Shown here piece by piece: positions 3,050 through 30,315 of a stretch of 39,997 nucleotides of DNA. The position numbers and the translations under genes are program-made. Under the pieces are notes generated by a model that saw only the letters and a program-made list of their open reading frames with translations, did not search any database and was not told the DNA's origin. The DNA is from Ignisphaera sp. (GTDB lineage: Archaea; Thermoproteota; Thermoprotei_A; Sulfolobales; Ignisphaeraceae). The stretch's first letter is position 1; every line of letters begins with the position of its first letter. The stretch spans positions 20,036 to 60,032 of the forward strand of contig JAWAHS010000004.1 of NCBI GenBank assembly GCA_038889075.1, in the 5' to 3' direction.

Positions 3050-3961
3050 ATTTCATCCAGTCAGAAAATAGCTATACTTTTCCTCGATACAGATAAGCAT
3101 GTAAGCCCCTTTGAACCCCTAATGGCTATAGATCTCTTTCCAGATGCAACAATAATGCTATACAGCAATGTGGAGCCGGAGGATGCTAAGAGAATTGTAC
3201 AGGATGCAATGTTTCCAAGGGGTCCCAAGGGCATTAGATATACAAAGATGTTTATAGGTGGTTATGATTTTGAGAAGGTTGAGAAGATTGTTGAAGTAGT
3301 TAAACAGACGATGTTCCCACCATTCGAATTCGCTGTTATTGTTGATCCAAGGGGTGCCAATACCACGGCAGCAGCTGCTGTTGCTAAGATGCTTCAGCTC
3401 TCTGTAAAACATGGTATGGATGGTTTTAGGGGTAAGAGAGTAGCAGTGTTAGCTGGCACGGGCCCCGTAGGTATTGTTGCATCAATTCTATTTGGACTTG
3501 AAGGTGCTGAAATTATCATAACATCTCGAAACCTTGAAAGAGCGCAGCTCACTGCCCAAAGGGTGAATATGGAGATAGGTTCTGAAAAAGCTGTTGGTGT
3601 CAAGGCATCTACACCTGATGAAATTGGTAGAGTGGTTGAGGAAGCAGATTTCGTGCTGGCTACTGGAGCAGCTGGGGTTAGACTTCTCCAGCTAGAGTTG
3701 CTTAGAAGCTGTAGCAGAGGTGGTGTAAAGATTGTAGCAGACGTAAATGCCGTACCGCCAACAGGTATAGAAGGGCTCAATCCAAACGATGAGGATAGGG
3801 AGATTGTAGCGGGGGTGCATGGCGTAGGTGCGCTGAGAATAGGTCTATTAAAGAATCGAGTATTGGCAGAGCTATTCAAACGTGCCATCGAATCCCCCAA
3901 GGGAATATTCGACTATAGAGCATCATATGAAATAGCAAAGCAGCTAGCAATTGAAAAATAG
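3050..3961 (+). CDS. NAD(P)-dependent methylene-tetrahydromethanopterin/tetrahydrofolate dehydrogenase (MtdA/B/C family)
   Basis: Motifs AMFPRGPKG, FIGG, DPRGANTTAAAAV, LAGTGPVG, ADVNAVPPTGIEG, GALRIG. The family's N-terminal motif (FLDTDKHVSPFE) is in frame upstream of the ATG at 3122, so the start is extended to ATT 3050. Confidence 0.88.
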   Translation: MSSSQKIAILFLDTDKHVSPFEPLMAIDLFPDATIMLYSNVEPEDAKRIVQDAMFPRGPKGIRYTKMFIGGYDFEKVEKIVEVVKQTMFPPFEFAVIVDPRGANTTAAAAVAKMLQLSVKHGMDGFRGKRVAVLAGTGPVGIVASILFGLEGAEIIITSRNLERAQLTAQRVNMEIGSEKAVGVKASTPDEIGRVVEEADFVLATGAAGVRLLQLELLRSCSRGGVKIVADVNAVPPTGIEGLNPNDEDREIVAGVHGVGALRIGLLKNRVLAELFKRAIESPKGIFDYRASYEIAKQLAIEK

Positions 3962-4076
3962 CACGATGAAACCGTAGCGGGATGGCGAAAAATCCTCTCC
4001 AAGGGCTATCAGTAAATGCATATAAGCTCCCTCTGGCAACAGTGTATCTACCAACAAGTACCTGTGTTGTGATATC

Positions 4077-4991
4077 ATGGTATGCCGTGAAAGATTTAGG
4101 GATAGAGTGTGCGTGGTTACAGGAGGTGCTAGGGGAATAGGTGCAGCTATAGCCTATAGACTTGGTTTAGAGGGTTGCAGAGTTGCTGTAATCGATATAG
4201 ATGAAGAGGCTGCTAGATATAGAATTGAGAATTTTGAGAGGAATGGTATCGAGGCTATGTATGTTCGAGCTGATGTGTCTGTGGAAGAGGAGGTTGCGAA
4301 GGCTATGGATGCTATATACCGTAGGTACAGCTCTATAAATGTTCTGGTGAATAATGCTGGTATAGGTTTTAGTGGAAGAGAGTTAGAGGAGCAAAGCTAT
4401 GATGAGTGGAGGAGGGTTATAGACGTTAATCTCACTGGCGTCTGGATATGCTCTAAACACGCCGTAAGATATATGAAGGCATCAGGTGGTGCTATAGTTA
4501 ACATTGCATCAACAAGAGCCGTACAGTCAGAGCCGAATACAGAACCCTACACAGCATCTAAAGGAGGTATAGTAGCACTAACACATGCACTAGCTGTTAG
4601 CTTAGCAAAATACAGAATTAGAGTTGTTGCTGTTTCCCCTGGATGGATTGATACAAGCGAATGGCAGATACCACCAAGAGAATCCAGTCTTTCACCTCTC
4701 GACCACCAGTGGCATCTAGCTGGAAGAGTTGGCAGGCCAGAGGATATAGCAGCTATAGTTGCATTTCTAGCCTCTGATGAAGCTGCATGGATAACAGGTG
4801 TAAATATAGTTGTCGATGGTGGGGTAACATCAAAGATGGTGTACATGGATGAGAATACCATATTCACCTCTCTCGAGATACTACTTCAGGATAGAGAAAT
4901 TGTAGAGCTAATTAAAACAGTTGTAGAGAAATCGAAACGTGGTGAAACATCTATAAAGGATAGGATTAGAGGTATTATTGATAGCAATTGA
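4077..4991 (+). CDS. Short-chain dehydrogenase/reductase (SDR) with ~50-aa C-terminal extension
   Basis: TGGARGIG, NNAG, catalytic YTASK, SPGWIDT. Confidence 0.93.
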   Translation: MVCRERFRDRVCVVTGGARGIGAAIAYRLGLEGCRVAVIDIDEEAARYRIENFERNGIEAMYVRADVSVEEEVAKAMDAIYRRYSSINVLVNNAGIGFSGRELEEQSYDEWRRVIDVNLTGVWICSKHAVRYMKASGGAIVNIASTRAVQSEPNTEPYTASKGGIVALTHALAVSLAKYRIRVVAVSPGWIDTSEWQIPPRESSLSPLDHQWHLAGRVGRPEDIAAIVAFLASDEAAWITGVNIVVDGGVTSKMVYMDENTIFTSLEILLQDREIVELIKTVVEKSKRGETSIKDRIRGIIDSN

Positions 4992-14068: not shown

Positions 14069-15265
14069 TTAGTATGGTGCTCTTGGATATTGTTGACCAA
14101 ATTTCCTTCCTATTTCATTAGCTATCTTCAGTAGATCTACAATCTGGTGCTCTGTTACTTCATAGGGTAGCCTCTGATACTCTGAGGTTGCCTTAACCTT
14201 TTCAGCAACTCTATAAAGATCCTCTTCCGTTACCTCCATCAATCCAAGTTCCTCAAATGATACAGGTAGTCCTACTGAATGTGCCCATCTGATATACTCT
14301 ACTGCCTGCTCTAAACTACCCTCGACAAGTATCTCAACTAGTGTACCGAATGCCACCATCTCTCCATGGTACTGTAAGAGCTTCATCTTCTTTTCTAGCA
14401 CACTAAGGGAATTCCCTATGGCATGAGCTAGAGCTGTACCACCATTCTCAAACGCCAACCCACTTAATAGAGTATTTGCATAGACAACCATCTCTAGACT
14501 AGGTGTAGCAATCCTAGCTTTTACAGCCTCCATAGCCGCTACACCGTGCTGTTGTAGAATCTCCCATGTTCGCTTCGCTAAAATATGTGCCAGCTCAAAT
14601 GGTTTAAGAGGTTCAACACCCTTCTTTCCATCGTAGTCCATAAATACATACCCTGGTTTATTGCCTGCAAAGATAGCCCTTGTTTCCCAGTAGTGCGATG
14701 CTGCATCTCCCATACCAGCTGCTAGAAATCTCGGTGGTGCCTTTGCAATAACCTCTGTATCAACTATAACCATATCAGGATTCTTGGGGTAGTTCAAGAC
14801 CTCTACAAATTCACCTGGATAAGGCTCGGTGTATATAACCGATATTGCTGAGGTCGGTGCATCTGTAGATGCTATTGTTGGAACCATTACTGCGGCTAAA
14901 CCATTTGGTATCGCTACAGCCTTAGCTGTATCTAGAGCCTTACCACCACCAACACCTACAACCATATCCACACCATTTTCTAGAGCTATCTTGGTTACCC
15001 TTCTAATCTCCTCCCAGCTGCACTCCCTATTAAAAATAACATATACATAGTCTACACTATATCTTCTAAGACTTTCCTCTATAGTACCTCCAACAATGTG
15101 TTTAACATCGGAATCAGATAGTATGAGTGCCCGGTTGCCAAATCGCTTAATGAGCCTACCTAAGTAGTTTAGTACTCCACCTCCCTGGATATAATTACTT
15201 GGAGCTCTAAAACCACGAATATAAAAAGTTGTCAGAGTATCTATGGCTTCAAATGTATGCTTCAA
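14069..15265 (-). CDS. gldA: Glycerol dehydrogenase-like (family III metal-dependent alcohol dehydrogenase)
   Basis: GGGKALDTAK, PTIASTDAPTS, AGMGDA, LAHAIGN, HGEMVAFG; GGTGA SD 6 nt before TTG. Confidence 0.85.
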   Translation of the reverse strand: MKHTFEAIDTLTTFYIRGFRAPSNYIQGGGVLNYLGRLIKRFGNRALILSDSDVKHIVGGTIEESLRRYSVDYVYVIFNRECSWEEIRRVTKIALENGVDMVVGVGGGKALDTAKAVAIPNGLAAVMVPTIASTDAPTSAISVIYTEPYPGEFVEVLNYPKNPDMVIVDTEVIAKAPPRFLAAGMGDAASHYWETRAIFAGNKPGYVFMDYDGKKGVEPLKPFELAHILAKRTWEILQQHGVAAMEAVKARIATPSLEMVVYANTLLSGLAFENGGTALAHAIGNSLSVLEKKMKLLQYHGEMVAFGTLVEILVEGSLEQAVEYIRWAHSVGLPVSFEELGLMEVTEEDLYRVAEKVKATSEYQRLPYEVTEHQIVDLLKIANEIGRKFGQQYPRAPY

Positions 15266-15547
15266 AATTCTTCACCATAGAATTAGTTACCAAAACATCT
15301 TAAAAATTCGATACTTCAATACTGACTATTCTATTGGATTACCCCTTCTTTCATTTCCTTAACTGGAAATTTTACACCTTCTCGTGGAAACAGTAGATGA
15401 ATTGCATCCCCTACCCTATTTGTTAATTGTATACTTTTACAGCTATATGTAGTTAATATCATTCTGAAGATCTGCGCAAATTAGCTGAACTGTGACTGCT
15501 ACTCGGTAATGGGAAACACCTTTTATCTCCCCATACAATACTGGTTA

Positions 15548-15604
15548 ATTTCAGTTGAGGATAATCTGATCATTGGATCACATCGGCTCTTCTTCATCAT
15601 CTCG
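15548..15604 (-). ncRNA. C/D-box sRNA (2'-O-methylation guide)
   Basis: Minus strand: ATGATGA (C) AGAAGAGCCGAT (12 nt) GTGA (D') TCCA ATGATCA (C') GATTATCCTCAA (12 nt) CTGA (D); TATA-like TTTTAAT about 25 nt upstream. Confidence 0.88.
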
Positions 15605-15681
15605 TATTACTGCATTGTACCTAGATTAAAATAGTTTACCTAATTTGGTTGGAAAAAGGATTTTAAAAAGCAATTCTTGTT

Positions 15682-17196
15682 TTAGAATTGCTTTGTCTTC
15701 TGACTTTTCAAAGCCCATGCGAATATTGCTATGCTAAATATTGTAATGATGGCTATATCTATTGGTGTAGTAAGTATGTTTTGAGGGGATATGGGTAGAA
15801 AGTTGTTGTATTCAAACATTGCATCACCTAGAAGCGAGATTAGTGTTAGTCCAACCAAGTACGCTATATACCACACGTTTTTCTTTAGTTCTCCTAGGAA
15901 TAGAAGGGTATTCTTTACTATAATTGGATACAATATGAGGCTCAGTATGGCCAGCACGGTACCTGTTAGTGTCCATGGCCAGCAGGCCCAGTATATATAG
16001 AGGGATGCTAGAATGAAACCTATCATTCCCAACATCATCGTACTTGAATTGCGTTTCACTAGCGAGAGGCTTAGTGCTGATATTCCATATGGTATAAACT
16101 CTGTTATCATTGCCATCAGTATTACGTTGGGGAAGCTCGGAACCAGTATCATGATAATCGCAGTTAGTATTGATGAGAATACCAGTGCCTTTGATGGTGT
16201 TCCAAAGCGTGGATTCACATGTGCTAGCGGTTTCCAGAATCTCTCCTCGCGTGCAAGGGCGTAGGCTACGCGTCCCTGAATCAACACCCAGTCGCTAAAG
16301 CATCCAGCTGATGCTATAACGGCTCCCACAACCATTAGTTCAGCTAATCCAGTTATCCCCAGGGCTCTCGAAACATCTGCTAGTGGCGATGATAACCCTC
16401 CTACAGCTTCCCAGTCCTTTTCAGCTATCCCTAGACCTCCCCAGTCTATAGATCCGATAAATACTGTCATGAGAAGTATATAGGCTATCGTAATCACCAA
16501 TACCGTAGCTATAGCAGATTTCATTATAGTCTTTTCAGGTTCTCGAACCTCTTCACTAACTAGAACAACGCTTTCAAAACCTACAAACATCCAAAAGCCG
16601 AAGGCTATCGCAAGCCCTATACTCCCAAGACCATACGGTGCAAAGGGCTCGAAATTACCTGGATTTACCCTTGCAAATCCTATGGCTATAAATGCTAGTA
16701 GTGGTGCTATTCTTGCTATTGTTAATATAAAGTTTAGTCCAGCACCATACTTAACACCAACAATATTAATCACGGTTACTATAGCCAGTATAGCTATGGC
16801 TATAGCGATACCTAGAGGTGTCAGAGTTAGACCTACAGCTATGTTTGGCACGTAGTATGAGAGATACAAAAGGAATGAATAGATTATAGCAGCAGTGCCG
16901 ATAAAGCAGCAGAAGTAGTAGCTAAGACCGGTTATGAAGCCTGCAAGATCTCCTAGAGCCTCTTTAGCAAAGTAGTATATGCCTCCAGCCTTAGGATACA
17001 TTACACCAAGCTTTGCAAGTATATACATTAGTATAAGGGTTATGACACTCATTAACACAATGGCTACAATTGAGAGAGGTCCGGAGACGGAAGCAACGAG
17101 TCCCGGAAGAGTATATATACCGGAGCCTATGACAGCACCAATACCTACAGCCGTAAGTAGTACTACACCAAGCTCTCTTCTTAGGGAGATCGCCAT
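15682..17196 (-). CDS. APC-family amino acid permease
   Basis: LRRELG, GAVIGSGIYTLPG, YPKAGGIY, FVGFES, RFGTP; ~14 TM segments; ATG 17196 follows an SD overlapping the mttB stop. Confidence 0.92.
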   Translation of the reverse strand: MAISLRRELGVVLLTAVGIGAVIGSGIYTLPGLVASVSGPLSIVAIVLMSVITLILMYILAKLGVMYPKAGGIYYFAKEALGDLAGFITGLSYYFCCFIGTAAIIYSFLLYLSYYVPNIAVGLTLTPLGIAIAIAILAIVTVINIVGVKYGAGLNFILTIARIAPLLAFIAIGFARVNPGNFEPFAPYGLGSIGLAIAFGFWMFVGFESVVLVSEEVREPEKTIMKSAIATVLVITIAYILLMTVFIGSIDWGGLGIAEKDWEAVGGLSSPLADVSRALGITGLAELMVVGAVIASAGCFSDWVLIQGRVAYALAREERFWKPLAHVNPRFGTPSKALVFSSILTAIIMILVPSFPNVILMAMITEFIPYGISALSLSLVKRNSSTMMLGMIGFILASLYIYWACWPWTLTGTVLAILSLILYPIIVKNTLLFLGELKKNVWYIAYLVGLTLISLLGDAMFEYNNFLPISPQNILTTPIDIAIITIFSIAIFAWALKSQKTKQF

Positions 17197-17205
17197 AATA
17201 TCCAC

Positions 17206-18657
17206 CTACACCTCAGGCAGCTTTTCCATTCCATATCTCCTCGCTATCCCTAGCATAACCTCGCTTAAGCTCTTCTCAACATCTGGTGGTAGTGGCTCTG
17301 GTGTATGTTCCTTCAATATCTTTTCAACATATTCTCTAGCAACGGTGCTCAGATCCTTGGAGCCACTTTTTCTCCACATATCGGTGGTTCTCTTATCCAA
17401 TAGCTTTGGTATGAAATGCTCCTTTCTCCACCACTCACGTGTATGTCTATGCTTTAGAAATAGTCCACCCGGCCCCACCTCTTCAATCACCCTTTCCGCA
17501 ATGGTCTCTGCATCCACATCTATTCCCCTGGCAAATCTTAGAGCGGAGCCGGCTATATCGTCATCTATAGCAAGCTTGACTAGGCTTATACAGTTCTCCT
17601 CCAGCAACATGCCCGATCCTATAGCCATATTTATACCAGCCAACACGGATACTAGTGCACCAAATGAAGCTTCTAGAGATGATTGTGCATCGACAACCTT
17701 AGCATCGCTTACAACTGTATACGATCCACTTGGAATTCCATAGAATTTTGCAAGCTGTGAAGTAGCAGCAGATATGAGGCCTACCTCTATATAGCCTGTA
17801 CATGATGTTGCAAACCTCTGGTCGAATACCGTTGGAGATCCACTGTAGACTATAGGTGCTCCAGGCTTTGTGAACTGGGCTATTACAAGCCCAGCTAGAA
17901 ACTCTGCATTTGCCTGTAAAATAGCGCCCGCCAATGTCGCCGGAGCAGTTCCGCTAGTCTGTGGCATTGGTATGATGTGTGCTGGAATACCGTATCTTGC
18001 ACAGTCCATAAGATTCTGTACGGTTAGCGCACTCCATTTAAGTGGTGGTGAAGAACATGCAGCGAATATCATAAAGGGCTTCCTGCCAATGTTCTCTTCA
18101 CCTATTACAGCAGCCATGAGCTTTGCAGCATCTGGAACCCCCTCCATAGTAAAAGCACCTGTATCTATAGGCTTAGAGCAGCTCTTTGCAACGACATACA
18201 TTCTCCATCTATCAGCAAGAATTTCAGGTATGTCTGCCGGAACCACGGCAGTCGACATTATGTGTGTATTTGGTAGATAGTCTGTAACCTTTGCAACATC
18301 AGCTAAATCCTTTGATAGTGGTCTTCTAACCTCACCTGTCCTAAGATCCATGTAGTAGTAGGCTGCAGAACCTACTACAAAATAGGTATTCCATCCACAC
18401 AGTTCGATATACTGCTTGCCATCTCTGTGATACAGCCTTACACAGTTAGGTGCTCTCTTTAGAGCCTCTCTAACAATATACTCTGGTATTCTGGCAATAC
18501 CTTTAGTGAAATCAACATCAGCACCAATGTTATGCAGCATTTTGAGGGCCTCTCCATGGTCAACCTTAACACCCACTCTACTGAGTATGTTGAGGCTTCT
18601 TACGTGTATCTCCATAACCTCCTCGCTATCGAGAACCTCAATTCTAGGTCTAGCCAT
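17206..18657 (-). CDS. MttB-superfamily (trimethylamine methyltransferase-like, non-pyrrolysine) methyltransferase
   Basis: IHxxSLxILxxVG, SSPPLKW, GTAPATLAGAILQANAEFLAG, IEEVGPGGLFLKHRHT. The Pyl position in FYGIPSGSYTV-V-SDAK is Val, and there is no in-frame TAG. Confidence 0.93.
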   Translation of the reverse strand: MARPRIEVLDSEEVMEIHVRSLNILSRVGVKVDHGEALKMLHNIGADVDFTKGIARIPEYIVREALKRAPNCVRLYHRDGKQYIELCGWNTYFVVGSAAYYYMDLRTGEVRRPLSKDLADVAKVTDYLPNTHIMSTAVVPADIPEILADRWRMYVVAKSCSKPIDTGAFTMEGVPDAAKLMAAVIGEENIGRKPFMIFAACSSPPLKWSALTVQNLMDCARYGIPAHIIPMPQTSGTAPATLAGAILQANAEFLAGLVIAQFTKPGAPIVYSGSPTVFDQRFATSCTGYIEVGLISAATSQLAKFYGIPSGSYTVVSDAKVVDAQSSLEASFGALVSVLAGINMAIGSGMLLEENCISLVKLAIDDDIAGSALRFARGIDVDAETIAERVIEEVGPGGLFLKHRHTREWWRKEHFIPKLLDKRTTDMWRKSGSKDLSTVAREYVEKILKEHTPEPLPPDVEKSLSEVMLGIARRYGMEKLPEV

Positions 18658-18668
18658 CGAAACACACC

Positions 18669-19328
18669 TCATCTAATATTCAGTAGCTTCTTAACGAGCT
18701 CAACAGCACTGATTGCATCGGGAGCCCATCCATCAGCTCCTATCTCCCTAGCCCACTCCTCTGTTGTTGGAGCACCTCCAACAACGATCTTCACCCTATC
18801 CCTTAGACCAGCCTGCTTAATCGCCTCTATGGTTTCCCGTTGCTTAAGCATTGTTGTAGTCATTAGCGCACTCATACCAACTATATCGGGGCTGTACTGC
18901 TTTATAGCCTCTACAAATTTTGAGGGAGGTACATCGATACCCAGATCTATAACCTCAAAACCCGAAGCTTCCCATAGTGATGCAACAATACTCTTACCAA
19001 TATCGTGTATGTCTCCTTCAACGGTACCAATAACTATCCTCCCACGGTAGCTTATACTGCCGCCCCTCTTAGCAATCTCACCTTTGAGAATGGATAGTCC
19101 CAGCTTCATAGCATCCGCAGCTGCAATAATGTCAGATATAAAGGCCTCACCATTAATCCATCTATCACCAAGCTCAAGAACCCCTGCAACCAAAGCCTTT
19201 TCAACAGCTTCGAGAGGATCGATACCAGCTTCAATAATCTTCTTAGCCAGCTTCACAACCTCATCAGAGTCGCCATTGATCGTTGCCTCCCTTAATTCTT
19301 TAAGAAGAACCTCTTTTGTAGACACCAT
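18669..19328 (-). CDS. Corrinoid (B12)-binding methyl-carrier protein (MttC/MtgC-like)
   Basis: GTVEGDIHDIGK (DxHxxG), SALMTTT, VGGAP, N-terminal cap domain. Confidence 0.95.
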   Translation of the reverse strand: MVSTKEVLLKELREATINGDSDEVVKLAKKIIEAGIDPLEAVEKALVAGVLELGDRWINGEAFISDIIAAADAMKLGLSILKGEIAKRGGSISYRGRIVIGTVEGDIHDIGKSIVASLWEASGFEVIDLGIDVPPSKFVEAIKQYSPDIVGMSALMTTTMLKQRETIEAIKQAGLRDRVKIVVGGAPTTEEWAREIGADGWAPDAISAVELVKKLLNIR

Positions 19329-19362
19329 TTCTTATACCACCTAGACCTTTCTAAGGTGATAT

Positions 19363-19431
19363 GCTTAATAAATCTTTCTGTTGACATATGGCTAGGCTAG
19401 CCAGAGCATTGGCTATATATCTAGTCACTAG
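19363..19431 (-). promoter_or_regulatory. BRE-TATA promoter of the methyltransferase operon with upstream palindrome
   Basis: Minus strand GAAAGATTTATTAAG about 40 nt before the ATG; perfect palindrome TGGCTAG-G-CTAGCCA at 19389-19403. Confidence 0.5.
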
Positions 19432-19698
19432 CTTTACTAAGAATAGATTATTGTAAGCTTAAGGTCTGCTTCTATGGAGGAGGCAATGATTATTAATGTT
19501 TTACGTTAGAGGTACGGCTTCAAGTTATTGATAGCTTTTCTTTAATACTGGCTATTCTATTTCAATGGTTATAGAATGTGTAGACAATGCTGTTCAATAT
19601 CCTATAGATATCATAGAATGTTGGTGATCTATCATGTGAGCTAGGTATAAGGTGCCGCTACTTCACGCCCATTATATTCTATTATTATAGAAAATGCA

Positions 19699-20661
19699 TC
19701 AGGGAACTCGGTATAGATGACATCTAACCTTATGATCTTTTCCAACCTCTATGAGTTCCGGTACCTGCCTAGTGCATATCTCTCTTTTTAGTGGACACCT
19801 ATCGACATACCTACAACCACCACCATGAAATCGTATGGCCGGTATTTCTTCGGGTATTTCTGGTCTCCAATCTATAGTTGGATCTGGCGAGGGATACGCC
19901 GAAATTAGGCACCTGGTATATGGATGTAGTGGTTCTGAGAATACGTTCTTCTTACTACCAATCTCTACTATATGCCCAGCATACATGACGGCTATGGTAT
20001 CGGATATATACCGTGCTAGTGCCAGATTATGTGTTATGAATAGATATGTAAGTTTCTTCTTTATTTTTATATCTTTTAATAGTTGTAGTATCTGTGCCTG
20101 TGTAGATACATCGAGCATTGATGTAGGCTCATCTAAAATCATAAACTCCGGCTCCGATATCAATGCTCTAGCTATTACTACCCTCTGCCTCTGTCCACCA
20201 CTTAACATATGGGGATACACCTTAAGATGCTGTTCATTTAGCCCAACAAGCTTTAGAGACTCTATGCTTTTTTCTATAGCTTCTCTCCTGCTATAGCCCT
20301 GGACTATCAGAGGCTCTACGATAGAGTCCTCTATTCTTAGCCTTGGATTCAGGGCCGAGTAGGGGTCTTGGAAGACGATCCTTATCTTGCCACGTAGACT
20401 CTGTGGAAACCTCCTTGTAATGTCTATTCCTTTAAATAGGTACCTTCCATCTGTGGGTTGCAATAGCTTAGCCAAAACCAACCCCAATGTTGATTTACCT
20501 GAACCACTTTCACCAACTATACCTACGGTTTCACCTCTACCCACCTCTAGATCAACACCATCTACCGCCTTAATATAGCCTACTACTCTTTTAAGAAATT
20601 TACTTCTAACCTCATAGTACTTCTTCAGCGAAACTGTCTTAACAAGCACCTCGTTATTCAT
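19699..20661 (-). CDS. dppF: Peptide ABC transporter ATPase
   Basis: GESGSGKS, LSGGQRQR, ILDEPT, C-terminal Cys cluster; ATG 20661 overlaps the dppD stop. Confidence 0.92.
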   Translation of the reverse strand: MNNEVLVKTVSLKKYYEVRSKFLKRVVGYIKAVDGVDLEVGRGETVGIVGESGSGKSTLGLVLAKLLQPTDGRYLFKGIDITRRFPQSLRGKIRIVFQDPYSALNPRLRIEDSIVEPLIVQGYSRREAIEKSIESLKLVGLNEQHLKVYPHMLSGGQRQRVVIARALISEPEFMILDEPTSMLDVSTQAQILQLLKDIKIKKKLTYLFITHNLALARYISDTIAVMYAGHIVEIGSKKNVFSEPLHPYTRCLISAYPSPDPTIDWRPEIPEEIPAIRFHGGGCRYVDRCPLKREICTRQVPELIEVGKDHKVRCHLYRVP

Positions 20662-21580
20662 AAAGATGACACCTGATATAGCTTTTGGCAATGCTCTTTA
20701 GGGTAGGTTCCTCATTGAAGCACCTCTCGAAAGCTATAGGACATCTGGGACTGAACCTACAGCCTTTAGGAAAGCTACCTGGTAGAGGAGGTTCACCATT
20801 TATTATATAGAGCTCATCGATATCGGTATCAATCCTCGGCACAGAGCTTAATAGGGCCCGAGTATAGGGATGCTTAGGTTCCCTAAATATTGAGTATCTA
20901 TCAGAACTCTCTACAACTTGGCCTGCATACATAATGGCCACTCTATCAGCTATGTGAGATGCTAGAGCTAGATCATGTGTTATGTACAACATGGGGATAC
21001 CACGTTTTTTAACGATGTCCTTCAGTAGGAGTAGCACCTTGGCTTGAATAGTAACATCGAGAGCTGTTGTAGGTTCGTCAGCTACGATAAGCTCAGGCTC
21101 CATAGCAATTGTCATTGCTATCAATACTCTCTGCCTCTGACCCCCGCTAAGCTCATGGGGATACCTATCCACAAATGAATCAGGTAGTCCAACATCTTTA
21201 AGCCTCTTTCTAGTCTCTTCAAAGGCTTCTTTTCTAGTCATTTTAAAGTGGTGTAGATATATTTCAGCTATCTGCTCCCCTATAGTTAGAAGTGGATTTA
21301 GACTTGCTAGGGCATCTTGAAATACTACAGCTACCTTGACCGGGTTGGTAGCAGCATCTTTACCGAAGATCCTTATGTATCCACCTGCTATTCTAGCATT
21401 GGGTGGTAGTAATCCAGCTATGGCTAGCCCTAGTGTTGATTTTCCACACCCTGATTCACCAACTATAGCTAGAATCTCCCCCCTTTCATCGATATCTATA
21501 TCGATATCATCGACTACCCTAATCCATCCACGAGTTGTTAAGTACTCTACTGATAGACGTCTTACCTCTAGAGGCTTCAT
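20654..21580 (-). CDS. dppD: Peptide ABC transporter ATPase
   Basis: GESGCGKS, YPHELSGGQRQR, ADEPTTALDVT, GCRFSPRC. Confidence 0.93.
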   Translation of the reverse strand: MKPLEVRRLSVEYLTTRGWIRVVDDIDIDIDERGEILAIVGESGCGKSTLGLAIAGLLPPNARIAGGYIRIFGKDAATNPVKVAVVFQDALASLNPLLTIGEQIAEIYLHHFKMTRKEAFEETRKRLKDVGLPDSFVDRYPHELSGGQRQRVLIAMTIAMEPELIVADEPTTALDVTIQAKVLLLLKDIVKKRGIPMLYITHDLALASHIADRVAIMYAGQVVESSDRYSIFREPKHPYTRALLSSVPRIDTDIDELYIINGEPPLPGSFPKGCRFSPRCPIAFERCFNEEPTLKSIAKSYIRCHLYE

Positions 21581-21589
21581 ATCTCTCTC

Positions 21590-22450
21590 CTAGCTACTCA
21601 ATCTCTTCTTCGGATCCAGATAGTCTCTCAAACCATCGCCAATCAAGTTGAATGAAAGTACTGTGAGAAACATGGCTATTCCTGGAAATACTGCAGGCCA
21701 CCATGCTTCTCTTATATATCTTCGGCCAACGCTCATCATTAAGCCCCATTCGGGTGTAGGTTCCTGAGCACCTAAGCCTATAAAGCTAAGGGTTGCGATA
21801 TAGAGTATTGCATTGCTTAACTCCATCGTTGCCTGGGTAATGAATATAGGCATAACGTGGGGTAGTATGTGCTTGGTTACTATCTTTATATCGCCTAATC
21901 CTGCTTCTCTTGCTGCTAGGACAAAGAGACTTTCTTTTGTCGATAAAACTACTCCTCTTACGAGCCGTGCATAGATAGGCATAGTTACGATAGCTACAGC
22001 TATTATAGCATTGAATAGATTGCTTCCAAATACTGATGCTATCGCTATAGCGAGCATGAATCCGGGTATGCTGATTAGTATATCCATGAGTCTCATCAGT
22101 ATGCCATCTACTACTCCACCTAGGTATCCTGATACCAGTCCTATAACCAGGCCTACGGCACCCGACAATGCAATTACAGCCAAGCCGCAACTGACATCCA
22201 ATATATATGCATAGGAGATTCTCGTAAAAACATCTCTTCCCAGGCTATCTGTACCCAGTATGTGAGGCCAGTGAAAGGTGCTTGGGGCTAGAGGAGGTAG
22301 ATGTACATTGTATGAAATCTGGTCGTATTTAAATGGAGAGAGTAGGATTACAAGGGTAGCTACGGCAGTTAATGCAATTAGGATGCTGAGACCATATCTT
22401 ATCCTCTTAATAGATAGCAGTATTTTGATGTTCTCAAAATTACGGTTCAT
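21590..22450 (-). CDS. dppC: Peptide ABC transporter permease
   Basis: LGTDSLGRD, EAA-like loop FVLAAREAG, PTPEWG, GDGLRDYLDP. Confidence 0.93.
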   Translation of the reverse strand: MNRNFENIKILLSIKRIRYGLSILIALTAVATLVILLSPFKYDQISYNVHLPPLAPSTFHWPHILGTDSLGRDVFTRISYAYILDVSCGLAVIALSGAVGLVIGLVSGYLGGVVDGILMRLMDILISIPGFMLAIAIASVFGSNLFNAIIAVAIVTMPIYARLVRGVVLSTKESLFVLAAREAGLGDIKIVTKHILPHVMPIFITQATMELSNAILYIATLSFIGLGAQEPTPEWGLMMSVGRRYIREAWWPAVFPGIAMFLTVLSFNLIGDGLRDYLDPKKRLSS

Positions 22451-22454
22451 TATG

Positions 22455-23465
22455 CTACTCCCTGATTCTAGGGTCTATGTAGATATAGAGGGTATCTACA
22501 ATAGCGTTTACAGCTATGTATATTATGGATACGACCAGGATCGATCCTTGAATAACCATGTAATCTCTTAAGGTAATAGCCTCCCAAATAAGTCTTCCGA
22601 GACCTGGCCAAGCAAAAATTGTTTCAACAATAATATCACCTGTAACGATAACAGCGAAATAGAGCCCCATAACAGTTACTATTGGTATTAATGCGTTTCT
22701 AAGAATGTGTCTATTCATAATTACAGATTCGGGTAACCTTTTCATTTTAGCTGTTCTTACAAATTCCTGCATCATTACCTCTAGCATGCTATTCCTACCT
22801 AATCTAATTAGAAGGCAGGTCAGTGGGATAGCTAGTGTTAGAGCTGGTGGAAGAATTCTTAAAAGTGAGTCTATGAATGCACTAATATTTCCATTCAGAA
22901 GTGTATCTATTAGCATAAAGCCGGTGTAGATCTTTATATGGTATCTAGGATCTATTCTACCACCTACTGGAAGACCTAGGTTGAGTCCGAAGAAGAGCAG
23001 TAGGGCTATACCCAGCAACATTGTGGGGAATGAGAATCCGAGGACTGAAAATGTTGATAATGCTAAATCGAGTCTCGTATCGTGTTTTCTGGCTGCGAGA
23101 ATCCCTAGAAATATTCCTAGAGCAGATGAGATAACGAAGGCGGTTATCACGAGCTCAAAAGATGCTGGTATTCTCTCTCTTATGAGCACGTTAACGCTGT
23201 GTCCCATTACATATGAATCGCCCAGATCTCCTTGTAGTAGCCGTGAGAAATATATTGCGAACTGTTCCAAGTAGCTTTTATCCAGTCCCCACTCCCTAGT
23301 TACCCTCTCGATGTTTTCAGGTGTTGCCTTAGGTCCTAGAATTGCTATAGCTGGATTGCCTGGAAGTACCCTCGAAAGAATGAAGATAATTACTATGGCT
23401 CCCAAAATGGAGAGTAGGGATTGGAATAGACGGGAAAAAATATATGAAATCATGCTTCTGCTCAT
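22455..23465 (-). CDS. dppB: Peptide ABC transporter permease
   Basis: GDLGDS, FVRTAKMK, HILRNALIP, ETIFAWPGLG, DPRIR. Confidence 0.93.
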   Translation of the reverse strand: MSRSMISYIFSRLFQSLLSILGAIVIIFILSRVLPGNPAIAILGPKATPENIERVTREWGLDKSYLEQFAIYFSRLLQGDLGDSYVMGHSVNVLIRERIPASFELVITAFVISSALGIFLGILAARKHDTRLDLALSTFSVLGFSFPTMLLGIALLLFFGLNLGLPVGGRIDPRYHIKIYTGFMLIDTLLNGNISAFIDSLLRILPPALTLAIPLTCLLIRLGRNSMLEVMMQEFVRTAKMKRLPESVIMNRHILRNALIPIVTVMGLYFAVIVTGDIIVETIFAWPGLGRLIWEAITLRDYMVIQGSILVVSIIYIAVNAIVDTLYIYIDPRIRE

Positions 23466-23477
23466 TACGTATCACAG

Positions 23478-25010
23478 CTATCGTGTTTTGTACACTGGGT
23501 AGAAGTCTATATAGTAAGCGGGATACAGTATGAATCCTTCGATGTTCTTACCCATAAAGGCATACAGTTTAGGTACGTAGAGAAATGCCCATGGTGCATC
23601 GTCGATGATTATCCTCTGTAGCTGTTTATATATTTCAGCTCTTTCCTGTGGATTTAATTTCTGTCTAGCTTTCATACTGAGCTCATTTACTACTGTATTG
23701 TTGTAGCCGTCTAGATTAAGTCCATGTGTGGTGAATAGCGGTACTATCCAATCGTCAGGATCTACATAGTCTGGGAACCAGTCAACCATATACATATCAA
23801 AATCGTAGTTGAATAGCCTGTCTAGGAAGCTGGGCCAATCTAGATCGACAATTCTTACATTTATACCTATAGCCTTGAGGCTACTCTGTATTACTGTTGC
23901 TACTTCTCCTCTTTCAGCTCTTTCAGCTGTACTGATTATAAGCTCTATTTCTCTCAATCCTTTTCCATCTGGATATCCAGCCTGGGCAAGCAACTGTCTA
24001 GCTAGCTCCGGGTTGTATCTATAGCCATAGTTTTCAACCTCAGGATCGTATCCGAAGACTGCTGGTGGAAGAGGTCCATAGAGTCTGGTAGCCGTGCCTC
24101 TAAGAACAACATTCAGTATATAATCGTAATTGATTGCATAGTTTACGGCTTTTCTGAACAGTAGATTGTTGAAGGGTTCTCTTCGATGATTCATACCCAG
24201 CCATTCAATAACAAGACCGTCTATCGAGACCATCTTTATATCTGGATTCTTTGATAGTGGTTCTACATCTTGCGGCTGGATGCCCAGTGCGATATCTATT
24301 TCACCTTTTTCAAGCGCTATTCTTAATGTTGCTGGATCTGGGTAGATCCTTATTATGATCCTATCTGCCTTTGGAGGCCCTCTCCAGTAATCTTTGTTGG
24401 CTACGAGAATTATCTGCTCTCCCTTTTTCCATGACTCGAGTTTGAAAGGTCCTGTGCCTATAGGTTTCTCCTCTAGGTTTGCTGCATTAGGAGGAACGGG
24501 AGCGAATATTGTGAATGTAGCTAGTGATGCAAATGGTGCAAATGGATATTTAAGTGTAAATCTAATGGTATACTTATCAACGACTTCTATATTCTCTATA
24601 ACATCGAGTAGAAATGAGGGAGGACCTTGCAACTGTTTTGCTCTCTCTATACTCTGCTTAACTATATCAGCCGACACCTCCGTTCCATCGTGGAACTTAA
24701 CATTTCTCCTCAAATAGAAAGTCCATACAGTGCTATCTTCATTGGATTCCCATCTTTCAGCAAGCTTAGGCATAAGCTCTGTAGTTCCCGGCTTGAATCC
24801 TATCAGCGAATCGTATATGTTCTGTATAACTATTGCTGAAGCTATATCATAGGATAGTGCTGGATCGAGAGTTTTAGGATCGTAGGTCGTTCCTACAACT
24901 ATTACAGTTTCAACTTGCTGAGGGGCTCGCATAAAAAATAGCGTAAGAACTGCAACCAAGATGACGACCACTGCCACGATACCTATGACGATGCTTCTCG
25001 ATATTCCCAT
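23478..25010 (-). CDS. dppA: Peptide ABC transporter substrate-binding protein (SBP family 5)
   Basis: N-terminal membrane anchor, TLDPA, LAERW, FHDG, GTGPF. Confidence 0.92.
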   Translation of the reverse strand: MGISRSIVIGIVAVVVILVAVLTLFFMRAPQQVETVIVVGTTYDPKTLDPALSYDIASAIVIQNIYDSLIGFKPGTTELMPKLAERWESNEDSTVWTFYLRRNVKFHDGTEVSADIVKQSIERAKQLQGPPSFLLDVIENIEVVDKYTIRFTLKYPFAPFASLATFTIFAPVPPNAANLEEKPIGTGPFKLESWKKGEQIILVANKDYWRGPPKADRIIIRIYPDPATLRIALEKGEIDIALGIQPQDVEPLSKNPDIKMVSIDGLVIEWLGMNHRREPFNNLLFRKAVNYAINYDYILNVVLRGTATRLYGPLPPAVFGYDPEVENYGYRYNPELARQLLAQAGYPDGKGLREIELIISTAERAERGEVATVIQSSLKAIGINVRIVDLDWPSFLDRLFNYDFDMYMVDWFPDYVDPDDWIVPLFTTHGLNLDGYNNTVVNELSMKARQKLNPQERAEIYKQLQRIIIDDAPWAFLYVPKLYAFMGKNIEGFILYPAYYIDFYPVYKTR

Positions 25011-28549: not shown

Positions 28550-29256
28550 CAGCCAAAGTCGTCTATCTAAGAATATCTATATACCTCTACACCTTTTATA
28601 TATTACCACCATAACGCTCTAGTAGAACTATAGAGATGTTTCAATAAGCCTTTCGGAGTTTTCAAAATTACGGAAACTATAGAGATTATTATACATCTAT
28701 CTAATTAAGATTAGAGAATCGCCTAGGAGAATAACCTTGTTCTCCTTCTCATAGTTTCTATCCCCTACATATCTTTGTACAGAGTTTGTTTGTATATATC
28801 CGGGGTTGATACTCCTAATGCTATATCCTATTGCTGCCGGGGATGCCGATTCCGTTCAGCATAGCTTTTTTGCTGATATAGGCATTTCTTCATCATATCG
28901 AGCATAGGTAGAGAACACTTCCCAGAGGGCTTCATAGAGCTTAGAATAACCATCCTAATTAAAGAGATTGTTGCAGCTTCCATGGCTGCGAATATGAAGA
29001 ATGCATTAATGATTAACATTGGAGCAGCTCTCCTGGTTACTGCTTTTTGGATCGCTAGAAAGAAAATACATGTACCATAGGATGGAGGAGTGCGGTAGAA
29101 ATACGGATTCAACCAGTAAGGTTATTCTACAGCCAGAATTCTTCAAATATCCGTTTTTGGGTAGCTCTAGACACTTGCTTTGCTAGTTGGATATAGCCTG
29201 TATCCCTTCACAATATTTTAAATACTGTGATAGCTATATAGTCTAGGGGATTGTAC

Positions 29257-30315
29257 ATGATGTCTAAACATCCCCTAGATCTACCTCCTGGTAGAAGGCT
29301 TTCACGTGAGGAGGTGGCTGAGGCTCTTAGGCTATCGATTATAGCTGAACTTGATGCGATTAATCTATATCTTCAGCTCGCTAGAGCTGTTGAAGATGAG
29401 AAGATTAGAAGGGTTTTTGAAGAGATAGCTAGGGAGGAGAAGACACATGTTGGTGAGTTTCTAGCTGTATTGAAGAGTCTGGATTCCGAACAGGTTGAGG
29501 AGCTGAGGAAAGGGGCTGAGGAGGTTAAGGAACTAACCGGTGTAACCGCTCCAGATCCTTCTCAAAATGTAGGAAATTCTGGAGGGGTAGAGGGTTTGAG
29601 TAGCGAAGAGAGAAAGTATCTATTAGAACAGGTTGTAAGAGTGGCGGATTCCATAAGGGTATTTAGACAGAGGCTACCTATTGTAAGAGTTGGACGTGGT
29701 GTTGATGCTGTACCTCTGGAGAGAGCCGGTACAAGGACTATTGTCACTCTTGATGAGGTATCGAAGAACTTTGTAATCACGCAAAAGGCTATAGACTACT
29801 CGAGAGCGATGAAACAACCTCTAGATGTAGGCGATGCTATTAGAGCGGCATCCGAGCTCGCCATTGATGAGGATAGAAAGGTGCTTGAAAAGCTTCTCGC
29901 TATAGAGGATGCTGTAAAGCTTACGGCAACTGGTTGGGATGAACCGGGCTCTGCTGTAGCAGAAGTATCTAGAGCAGTACAAGAGCTTGTAAGAAATGGT
30001 GCTACAGGACCATACATACTATTTGTAAGCCCAACTAGATACGCTAAGCTTGTAGCAGTCTATGAAAGGACTGGCGTTATGGAGATTACGAGACTTAAGG
30101 CACTTGTAAAGGATGTTGTAGCAACACCTGTACTGCCAGACGATACTGTGCTTATAGTTACATCAATCCCTACGGTGCTAGATATGGTAGTTGGAGGAGA
30201 TACAGAGGTTGAGTACATAGGTCCTGAGGATGGTATCCACAGGTTTAGAGTATGGGAAACTATAGCTATAAGGGTAAGAAATCCGAAGGGCATTGCCATA
30301 CTAAAGCAGACATAG
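29257..30315 (+). CDS. Ferritin-like protein fused to family 1 encapsulin shell (Pyrococcus-type Flp-encapsulin)
   Basis: N-terminal ALRLSIIAELDAINLY...IAREEKTHVGE (di-iron ExxH), linker, then shell with ELAIDEDRKV, GPYILFVSP and FRVWETIAIRVRNPKGI. Confidence 0.9.
   Translation: MMSKHPLDLPPGRRLSREEVAEALRLSIIAELDAINLYLQLARAVEDEKIRRVFEEIAREEKTHVGEFLAVLKSLDSEQVEELRKGAEEVKELTGVTAPDPSQNVGNSGGVEGLSSEERKYLLEQVVRVADSIRVFRQRLPIVRVGRGVDAVPLERAGTRTIVTLDEVSKNFVITQKAIDYSRAMKQPLDVGDAIRAASELAIDEDRKVLEKLLAIEDAVKLTATGWDEPGSAVAEVSRAVQELVRNGATGPYILFVSPTRYAKLVAVYERTGVMEITRLKALVKDVVATPVLPDDTVLIVTSIPTVLDMVVGGDTEVEYIGPEDGIHRFRVWETIAIRVRNPKGIAILKQT

Follow-up and report, generated by a model that had tools for sequence, protein, structure and literature searches.

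A pyrrolysine-free MttB-type methyltransferase operon with an APC permease in Ignisphaera, a candidate cassette for harvesting methyl groups from a cationic N-methyl compound

We analyzed a putative operon of three genes in the hot-spring archaeon Ignisphaera sp. (assembly GCA_038889075.1), which encodes a corrinoid protein, a methyltransferase of the MttB family and an APC-type permease. It is located at positions 15682-19328 on the minus strand of a 39,997-nucleotide (nt) stretch of DNA; this whole stretch is called the window, and all coordinates refer to it unless another locus is named. With confidence clearly above even, though well short of certainty, we favor the view that these genes form a self-contained methyl-harvesting cassette, by which a cationic N-methyl compound is imported and demethylated and its methyl group is fed into the carbon-fixing pathway. 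In this model, the permease would import a positively charged N-methylated compound, the MttB-family enzyme would move one methyl group to Co(I) of the adjacent corrinoid protein, and a stand-alone MtrH encoded elsewhere in the genome would then unload the corrinoid protein, with tetrahydromethanopterin (H4MPT) as methyl acceptor. Methyl-H4MPT could then either be converted to acetyl-CoA via CODH/ACS (carbon monoxide dehydrogenase and acetyl-CoA synthase) or be oxidized to CO2 via Mer, Mtd, Mch, Ftr, and Fwd, and a RACo/RamA-type activase would re-reduce oxidized corrinoid. We infer the direction of methyl flow, the role of MtrH as acceptor, the class of the substrate, and the antiport considered below. 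The three genes are:

18669-19328, minus strand: methyltransferase-cognate corrinoid protein, 219 amino acids (aa); Pfam B12-binding_2 (60 bits) and B12-binding (110 bits)
17206-18672, minus strand: pyrrolysine-free MttB-superfamily methyltransferase, 488 aa from ATG 18672; Pfam MTTB (292 bits)
15682-17205, minus strand: APC-superfamily permease, 507 aa from GTG 17205; Pfam AA_permease_2 (146 bits)

These minus-strand open reading frames (ORFs) fill 15682-19328 exactly, and the tight coupling proposed in an initial annotation of this DNA was confirmed by their stop/start overlaps. The stop codon TGA of the corrinoid gene (18671-18669) is overlapped by the ATG at 18672, and the stop codon TAG of the MttB gene (17208-17206) sits within GAGGTGTAGGTG, directly followed by GTG 17205 and ATG 17196. 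Since most full-length homologs have 483 aa, translation of the MttB gene probably starts at ATG 18657 (483 aa), which lies 11 nt past the corrinoid stop codon behind TGAGGTG. For the permease, the likely start codon is ATG 17196 (504 aa), preceded by GAGGTGTAGGTG. The single flagged TAG is the codon just before ATG 18672 and lies outside the MttB gene.

The DxHxxG His-on motif of the corrinoid protein reads DIHDIG in the translation, and its best NCBIfam match was MtgC (223 bits, cut-off 310), while TIGR02370 (pyl_corrinoid) scored 212.9 bits, just under the cut-off of 215.3. By both Pfam domains and the His-on motif, the product is a corrinoid protein of the MttC/MtbC/MtgC type. The second gene product belongs to the MttB superfamily (Pfam PF06253, COG5598; 292.5 bits, cut-off 25, with positions 25-491 of the 500-position profile covered) and scored 409.9 bits with TIGR02369, the equivalog of true MttB, which has a cut-off of 525. 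These family identities agree with the earlier description as a corrinoid-dependent demethylation operon. Among the 35 ORFs (100 aa or longer) scanned in the window, none gave a profile match to MtrH, Pterin_bind, URO-D, or RACo, in agreement with the initial annotation, which saw no methyl-corrinoid:pterin/CoM transferase or RamA-type activator there.

Residues of the active-site pocket were assigned by pairwise sequence alignments to MttB of Methanosarcina barkeri (PDB 7xcl) and MtgB of Desulfitobacterium hafniense (PDB 9yce; its numbering is that of the paper minus 2). The best PDB match was 7xcl with 248 bits, and MtgB gave 217 bits over the full length. The predicted pocket comprises V99, V100, S102, M236, G316, V321, I351, G352, E358, and E359. 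Gly110-Thr111, Met249, Pyl334, and Tyr364, which are named for MttB by Li et al. (2023; PMC9842639), correspond to V99-V100, M236, V321, and I351. The alignment of Val321 with pyrrolysine 334 (X in 7xcl) confirmed the valine that had been noticed at the pyrrolysine position. A pyrrolysine-independent methyltransferase for trimethylamine or another simple methylamine would agree with the true MttB as closest solved structure, with the retention of Met249, and with two uninterrupted MtmB homologs in the same genome. We nevertheless consider such an activity very unlikely, given the exchanges of Pyl334 to Val, Tyr364 to Ile, and Gly110-Thr111 to Val-Val, the TIGR02369 score of 410 bits compared to the equivalog cut-off of 525, and the reasoning that small amines would hardly need an APC-type carrier.

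Picking et al. (2026; PMC13080624) identified Y97, R312, H348, and F356 as the residues by which MtgB binds glycine betaine, based on mutagenesis and on a structure with bound ligand, and they report that R312 is conserved in all characterized pyrrolysine-free members, whose substrates are acidic quaternary amines. Phosphocholine is given in the literature as the substrate of MthB. The four MtgB ligands align with S102, G316, G352, and E359, so that none of them is kept. The arginine equivalent to R312, which is a hallmark of MtpB, MtcB, MtyB, and MthB according to the text of the paper rather than to an alignment of their sequences, is Gly316 here. Because the ligand residues are changed and the TIGR02369 score is below its cut-off, the enzyme is, as judged from its sequence, neither an MtgB nor a pyrrolysine-type MttB. 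The plain glycine-betaine MtgB that the initial annotation had reckoned with is thereby discounted, and on the same grounds the substrate is predicted to be neither glycine betaine or another acidic betaine nor trimethylamine via pyrrolysine.

An ordinary quaternary-amine system resembling bacterial MtgBC (with substrates of the glycine betaine, proline betaine, carnitine, butyrobetaine, or phosphocholine type), in which merely the transporter was swapped, is an unlikely explanation. It is in agreement with the fact that all characterized pyrrolysine-free MttB members act on quaternary amines, with MtgC as top NCBIfam match of the corrinoid protein and MtgB as a strong PDB match, and with the quaternary amines assumed for this clade in a 2024 study of Asgard archaea (PMC11291895). 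Against it stand the loss of all four glycine-betaine residues, with Gly or Ala at the R312 site in all seven sequences of the Ignisphaera subclade described below, and the MtgC score below cut-off. Moreover, none of 80 related loci (many of them short contigs; neighbors counted within 3.5-4.5 kb) encoded a BCCT or OpuA-type betaine transporter, and none of the 378 neighboring ORFs scanned encoded a BCCT transporter.

The pocket columns were then counted in 84 aligned sequences, i.e., 7 of the Ignisphaera subclade, 69 of the wider clade, and 8 distant paralogs from the same loci:

Position 99: V in 7 of 7 subclade sequences; N or D in 62 of 69 wider-clade sequences
Position 100: V in 7 of 7; P in 68 of 69
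Position 316 (site of the carboxylate-binding Arg of MtgB): G or A in 7 of 7; H in 62 of 69
Position 321: V in 7 of 7; L in 53 of 69
Position 351: I in 7 of 7; S in 66 of 69
Position 358: E in 6 of 7; F in 45 of 69
Position 359 (site of the cation-pi Phe of MtgB): E in 7 of 7; E in 61 of 69

The subclade shares S102, Y318, D323, K325, G352, and E359 with the wider clade and differs at positions 99, 100, 316, 321, 351, and 358. The alignment suggests that the Ignisphaera subclade lost the sole basic residue at the pocket floor and gained a second glutamate (Glu358-Glu359), i.e., that its pocket was remodeled and became more acidic. Since the pocket lost this basic residue and carries two adjacent glutamates, the substrate is predicted to be strongly cationic and to lack a carboxylate at the betaine position. 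Most likely it is a cationic N-methyl amine or amino-acid derivative, with N-methylated diamines or polyamines, amino alcohols, and basic amino-acid side chains as candidates. In the wider clade, His316 (62 of 69), Glu359 (61 of 69), and Cys361 (61 of 69) are conserved together and form a possible metal site; the Ignisphaera subclade has G or A at position 316, and C361 in four of seven sequences.

The assignment of the transporter to the APC superfamily rather than to BCCT, made in the initial annotation, was correct according to the AA_permease_2 match. Its best NCBIfam match was TIGR00909 with 201 bits, far under the cut-off of 557, and the nearest solved structures were AdiC (89.7 bits) and GkApcT, a homolog of cationic-amino-acid carriers (84 bits). 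AdiC, PotE, and CaiT are substrate/product exchangers. By analogy, the permease may swap the substrate for the demethylated product. In and beside the operon, we found no gene whose product would degrade the demethylated compound further; with such an exchange, the three genes would suffice. A more specific proposal is that Glu359, invariant in the subclade, and the subclade-specific Glu358 hold a strongly basic, non-quaternary N-methyl substrate in its protonated state, allowing pyrrolysine-independent demethylation of a secondary or tertiary amine while the permease exchanges substrate for product. N-methylated basic amino acids such as methyl-lysine and methylated di- or polyamines would be candidates in this case. 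Although we regard this proposal with considerable doubt, it would mean that a hyperthermophilic crenarchaeote needs just three genes to harvest the methyl groups from which it makes acetyl-CoA.

The further steps of the proposed route were searched for in the genome, which has a size of 1.95 Mb and is 99.6% complete. It contains one mtrH gene (279 bits) that is divergent from mer (NCBIfam 450 bits, cut-off 276). The mch gene is grouped with FwdC-, FwdA-, and FwdB/D-like genes, and next to these are ftr and the gene for the F420-dependent Mtd (388 bits), which just 4 of the 17 Ignisphaera genomes encode. The genes for CdhC, CdhD, and CdhE are clustered with those for a RACo and a CooC-like ATPase, and a second activase, a 622-aa protein of the RACo/AcsV type, is encoded elsewhere; the two RACo-family proteins scored 286 and 285 bits. 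McrA was not found in the genome. The initial annotation had considered that the genome might lack any methyl acceptor or activator. MtrH and the two RACo-type activases are present, whereas no MtgA-type candidate was found in the genome, only a dihydropteroate synthase-like Pterin_bind protein. One weak core methionine-synthase-like gene (Pfam 26 bits, NCBIfam 66 bits) is located on a different contig from the cassette. A complete three-component system consisting of the first methyltransferase (MT1), a corrinoid protein, the second methyltransferase (MT2), and an activase is encoded in the genome, and presumably MT2 and the activase serve the corrinoid protein of the operon. Wood-Ljungdahl genes and an MtrH of unclear role had already been reported for Ignisphaera metagenome-assembled genomes (MAGs) by Berghuis et al. 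(2019).

The genome also has genes for four additional small corrinoid proteins, approximately eight methyltransferases of the UroD fold, and the two uninterrupted MtmB homologs mentioned above. Three of these corrinoid proteins are encoded beside UroD-fold methyltransferase genes, two of these clusters including MFS carriers. The pyrrolysine-free MtmB homologs (305 and 326 bits; no NCBIfam match) are part of a second methylamine-type cluster (G000:C1:249893-259413, corresponding to L108:3893-13413), which also encodes a corrinoid protein, an ABC transporter of the Bmp/PnrA type, and an MtaA-like protein of the UroD family (209 bits). At positions 3122-3961 (plus strand) of the window, we observed a gene for a 279-aa protein that consists only of the N-terminal domain of an MtdA-type methylene-H4MPT dehydrogenase (Pfam Mpt_N, 67 bits).

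With respect to its distribution, an ortholog of the MttB gene was found in 8 of the 15 Ignisphaera genomes searched and is for this reason regarded as an accessory gene; MtrH is encoded in 16 of 17 genomes of the genus. Orthologs of the permease gene occur in 7 of 17 genomes, always directly beside the MttB gene, and in none of the seven genomes that lack the latter. The closest named homologs of the MttB protein are from Ignisphaera MAGs (85-87% identity), followed by MAGs of Desulfurococcaceae and Sulfolobales (55-69%) and, at 37-50% identity, by sequences of Bathyarchaeia, Baldr-, Odin-, Jord-, Frey-, Thor-, and Helarchaeota, and Chloroflexota. In a quick maximum-likelihood tree of 82 sequences, from which two truncated rows had been dropped and which was not anchored on MtpB, MtcB, MtyB, or MthB, the protein fell inside an uncharacterized archaeal MttB-like clade (Asgard, TACK, Chloroflexota). 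The Ignisphaera sequences and one from Desulfurococcaceae formed a fully supported clade of seven on a long stem (0.47), sister to three sequences of the order Sulfolobales, and both together were sister to all others in the tree.

All three genes are under purifying selection, with a ratio of nonsynonymous to synonymous substitution rates (dN/dS) of 0.07-0.14 in four pairwise comparisons with orthologous loci (corrinoid protein 0.07-0.10, MttB 0.07-0.11, permease 0.10-0.14); these ratios are approximate, as dS was about 1-1.9. The synteny of the cassette is kept in seven genomes. Contigs of the metatranscriptome run X1 spanned 15458-19317 at a word depth of about 57, compared to only 10-15 for gldA and the dpp genes flanking the operon, and none covered 14657-15457 or 19318-19779. 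A second study (X4), of which about 5% of the run was read, yielded six raw reads, all within the operon and always with the first mate on the plus strand, as minus-strand RNA would give in a standard stranded library. Runs X2 and X3 gave no matching reads in 3% of each run, a sample too small for a test. The RNA coverage of the three genes fits one transcription unit. We also observed that the X1 contig over the corrinoid gene continues beyond 19317 with 29 letters matching the junction of corrinoid stop and MttB start (18662); these loose contig ends at 18662/19317 could be due to a chimeric assembly or, in that strain, to corrinoid genes in tandem.

The patchy occurrence in the genus and a truncated copy in one MAG are what a non-functional relic of an ancestral methylotrophy would leave. 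However, the intact reading frames, the low dN/dS values, the conserved synteny, the RNA-library coverage above that of the flanks, and the full acceptor pathway make a relic extremely improbable. In the truncated copy (L030:5870-6930), no more than residues 180-488 of MttB and a corrinoid fragment of 45 aa are left, and a gene for alpha-L-fucosidase follows; this copy represents either decay of the cassette or an assembly artefact.

Several observations weigh against the proposed methyl-harvesting cassette. The pocket positions were derived from pairwise alignments at about 35% identity instead of a structure, and an indel near residues 94-98 makes the mapping of 99-102 less sure. The permease resembles AdiC and GkApcT weakly (84-90 bits), and its NCBIfam scores stay below every subfamily cut-off. 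It is not obligatory, since genome G121 of the same genus (locus L026) and genomes of Desulfurococcaceae and Sulfolobales contain the corrinoid-MttB pair but no permease. The genes for MtrH and the activases are not linked to the operon in this genome, and five corrinoid systems could share their products; the MtaA-like protein of the genome is a possible alternative acceptor. Contigs from RNA libraries cannot prove transcription, strand, or transcript ends, and the X4 reads are few (six). Finally, CbiC was not found in the 99.6%-complete genome, which encodes at least five small corrinoid proteins plus CODH/ACS; as CobS is present, corrinoids are probably salvaged or imported.

In the regions flanking the three genes, the following elements were read from the sequence:

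19365-19378, minus strand: archaeal-type promoter, with a purine-rich GAAAGA resembling a transcription factor B recognition element (BRE) followed by the TATA box TTTATTAA, of predicted function
19337-19341, minus strand: Shine-Dalgarno-like GGTGG, 8 nt before ATG 19328
15653-15669, minus strand: two T5 tracts, 13-29 nt past the permease stop codon

The GAAAGA-TTTATTAA element lies about 40 nt ahead of the corrinoid start codon. When the upstream regions of Ignisphaera loci were aligned, five of six had a AAAGATTTATA-like block at equal distance from the ATG, and the aligned relatives carried a GGTG or GTGT block at the Shine-Dalgarno-like site. A palindrome, GGCTAGCCTAGCC, is present at 19385-19397 (minus strand) just upstream of the BRE/TATA element and may be a regulator site; a weaker one, TAGCTTAGC, is found at the matching place in L026. 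The T5 tracts are a possible archaeal oligo-T terminator, and the RNA-library contig extends past them to 15458. A scan for bacterial-type promoters and terminators gave fewer sites than shuffled sequences did (7 compared to 10.8, and 1 compared to 2.7) and is uninformative for an archaeon.

The dpp operon is located upstream on the same strand (19699-25010), and the gap of 370 bp between it and the corrinoid start codon holds the separate promoter-like element. A peptide importer upstream on the same strand had been noted in the initial annotation, and this part stood; a functional link to the cassette was not supported, given the separate promoter, the gap in the RNA contigs, and the absence of dpp genes beside the 10 closest loci. 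The cassette is predicted to be separate from dpp and to have its own promoter. The glycerol dehydrogenase gene downstream (14069-15265; NCBIfam 380 bits) was rejected as a member of the operon; it is not conserved beside it, and the X1 contigs break between the two. In general, the genes flanking the cassette vary from species to species. Homologs of dppA-F, gldA, and the TatD gene were not found beside the 10 closest loci (L022-L031), and the MFS gene of the window recurred in L022 only. Because this MFS gene is the only one that recurs among these loci, the flanks are not considered part of the unit.

For the 80 related loci, the scan covered every ORF of 100 aa or more in L032-L101 that lacked a match to the three query proteins (335 ORFs), and 43 of 89 ORFs in L022-L031. 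Omitted from the latter loci were the genes for MttB and the corrinoid protein as well as most ORFs that were small or distal. The neighbors of the MttB gene, within 3.5 kb for MtrH and RACo, were:

Corrinoid protein beside the MttB gene: 39 of 80 loci
MtrH: 8 of 80 loci
RACo-type activase: 6 of 80 loci
High-scoring MtaA-like UroD protein: 4 of 80 loci
Core methionine synthase: 6 of 80 loci
APC permease: 6 of 80 loci (4 orthologous, 2 distant)
Saccharopine-dehydrogenase-like protein: 6 of 80 loci
Arginase or agmatinase: 3 of 80 loci
Dimethylargininase-like protein: 2 of 80 loci

The MtrH and RACo neighbors support the proposed methyl route. The initial annotation had suggested that the system may salvage N-methylated amino acids, such as the methyl-lysines of digested protein, for their methyl groups. 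Amino-acid-related genes within 3.5 kb in the wider clade, including several for aminotransferases and peptidases, are in line with this, as are weakly the kinship of the permease to cationic amino-acid carriers and the acidic Glu358-Glu359 pocket, which would suit a basic side chain. We consider this source quite unlikely, since those neighbors belong to bathyarchaeial enzymes with another pocket and were counted without a background control, the adjacency of dpp is not conserved, and the operon holds no lysine-catabolic gene. In addition, crenarchaeal lysine methylation is mostly mono-methylation, which yields a secondary amine, and to our knowledge no pyrrolysine-free MttB member demethylates a non-quaternary amine.

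The six loci with core methionine synthase (Meth_synt_2) genes beside the pair (L027, L046, L066, L067, L072, L076) bear on another possibility, namely that the MttB enzyme loads the corrinoid protein as methyl donor for a core synthase of the MesB/MesC type. According to a prediction of Price et al., core synthases obtain their methyl groups from corrinoid proteins, and the genome has the one weak core-synthase-like gene. This gene, however, lies on another contig and scores far under the cut-offs, and a cassette absent from 7 of 15 genomes of the genus is ill-fitting for an essential biosynthesis. With the CODH/ACS corrinoid protein available as donor and a dedicated importer pointing to a nutrient, a role in methionine synthesis appears improbable.

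Some of the related loci showed noteworthy arrangements. In four loci of Jordarchaeia/Freyarchaeota (L066, L067, L072, L076), a convergent gene for a core methionine synthase of 301-303 aa follows right after the corrinoid-MttB pair (approximately 7434-8367 in L066, L072, and L076; 3811-4722 in L067; PRK00957 254 bits at a cut-off of 258 in L066), and in L027 of Desulfurococcaceae a divergent one is located upstream of the pair. In six Bathyarchaeia loci (L059, L064, L068, L077, L079, L090), a gene of the saccharopine-dehydrogenase family adjoins the MttB homolog; none of the six proteins had an NCBIfam match at 1e-10, and they cannot be named further. Genes resembling that of dimethylargininase (DDAH) are present next to MttB homologs in two Bathyarchaeia loci (L034:3742-4545 and L047:694-1767; 192 and 185 bits, cut-off 450). 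DDAH releases dimethylamine or monomethylamine from methylarginines. In the bathyarchaeial locus L074, an MtbB homolog (3855-4910) is encoded beside a corrinoid protein, an MttB homolog, a RACo, and an APC permease; its ORF ends at profile position 353 of 463, which may be due to a UAG codon for pyrrolysine. Apart from these loci, the window contains at 29251-30315 (plus strand) a single 354-aa ORF that fuses a rubrerythrin-like domain to an encapsulin shell (Linocin_M18) domain.

Pyrrolysine-free MttB homologs are widespread in non-methanogenic archaea, and the substrates of this archaeal clade, and with them a whole class of predicted non-methanogenic methylotrophy, are a matter of guesswork. 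The Ignisphaera cassette is a compact test case, with three genes, an importer, a divergent pocket, an in situ RNA signal, and a full acceptor pathway in a small genome, and the members of the genus that lack it are natural controls. Its substrate, once identified, would tell which methylated compounds enter the Wood-Ljungdahl pathway of Thermoproteota in hot springs, and whether the superfamily extends past acidic quaternary amines.

The kind of system described here is already known from genomics. Valentin-Alvarado et al. (2024; PMC11291895) described MttB-like, MtbC-like, and MtrH genes of Atabeyarchaeia and Freyarchaeia as a previously uncharacterized group common to Asgard and TACK archaea including Thermoproteota, which likely depends on quaternary amines and passes the methyl group to the H4MPT or tetrahydrofolate branch. 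With this proposal of 2024 and the Wood-Ljungdahl genes and MtrH reported for Ignisphaera in 2019, the suggestion of the initial annotation that the route may be undescribed is not supported. No publication on the Ignisphaera MttB-permease operon was found in a literature search, which is weak evidence of absence; supplementary phylogenies of the cited papers may already place Ignisphaera sequences. What appears to be new is the permease in the operon, limited to MttB-positive genomes, the remodeled acidic pocket, and the evidence of expression.

The Asgard/TACK sets appear to belong to the same clade, as sequences of Freyarchaeota, Jordarchaeia, Baldrarchaeota, Bathyarchaeia, and Thermoproteota clustered with the Ignisphaera sequence in the tree, and they share the absence of pyrrolysine and of methyl-coenzyme M reductase, the cognate corrinoid protein, the stand-alone MtrH, and the Wood-Ljungdahl pathway. 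They differ in that MtrH is unlinked in Ignisphaera, an APC permease is part of the operon, the host is a hyperthermophilic crenarchaeote, and all or almost all of the seven subclade sequences depart from that clade at six pocket positions (His316 lost, Glu358 gained). MtgB/MtgC of D. hafniense (PDB 2qne, 9yce) is of the same superfamily and likewise a two-gene pair of pyrrolysine-free MT1 and His-on corrinoid protein; its acceptor is tetrahydrofolate via MtgA, whereas that of Ignisphaera is presumably H4MPT via MtrH, and the Ignisphaera operon lacks a betaine transporter and has S, G, G, and E at the ligand positions. MttB/MttC of M. barkeri (7xcl) is the best solved-structure match with Met249 kept, but the Ignisphaera enzyme lacks UAG/pyrrolysine, Tyr364, and Gly110-Thr111, and the host is not a methanogen. 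Corrinoid O-demethylases of the MtoABCD type and others pass methyl groups to H4MPT via an MtrH homolog in non-methanogenic or methoxydotrophic archaea. These systems likewise consist of an MT1, a corrinoid protein, an MtrH-type MT2, and a RamA-type activase; they differ in the UroD fold of their MT1, compared to the MttB TIM barrel, and presumably in the use of an O-methyl instead of an N-methyl donor.

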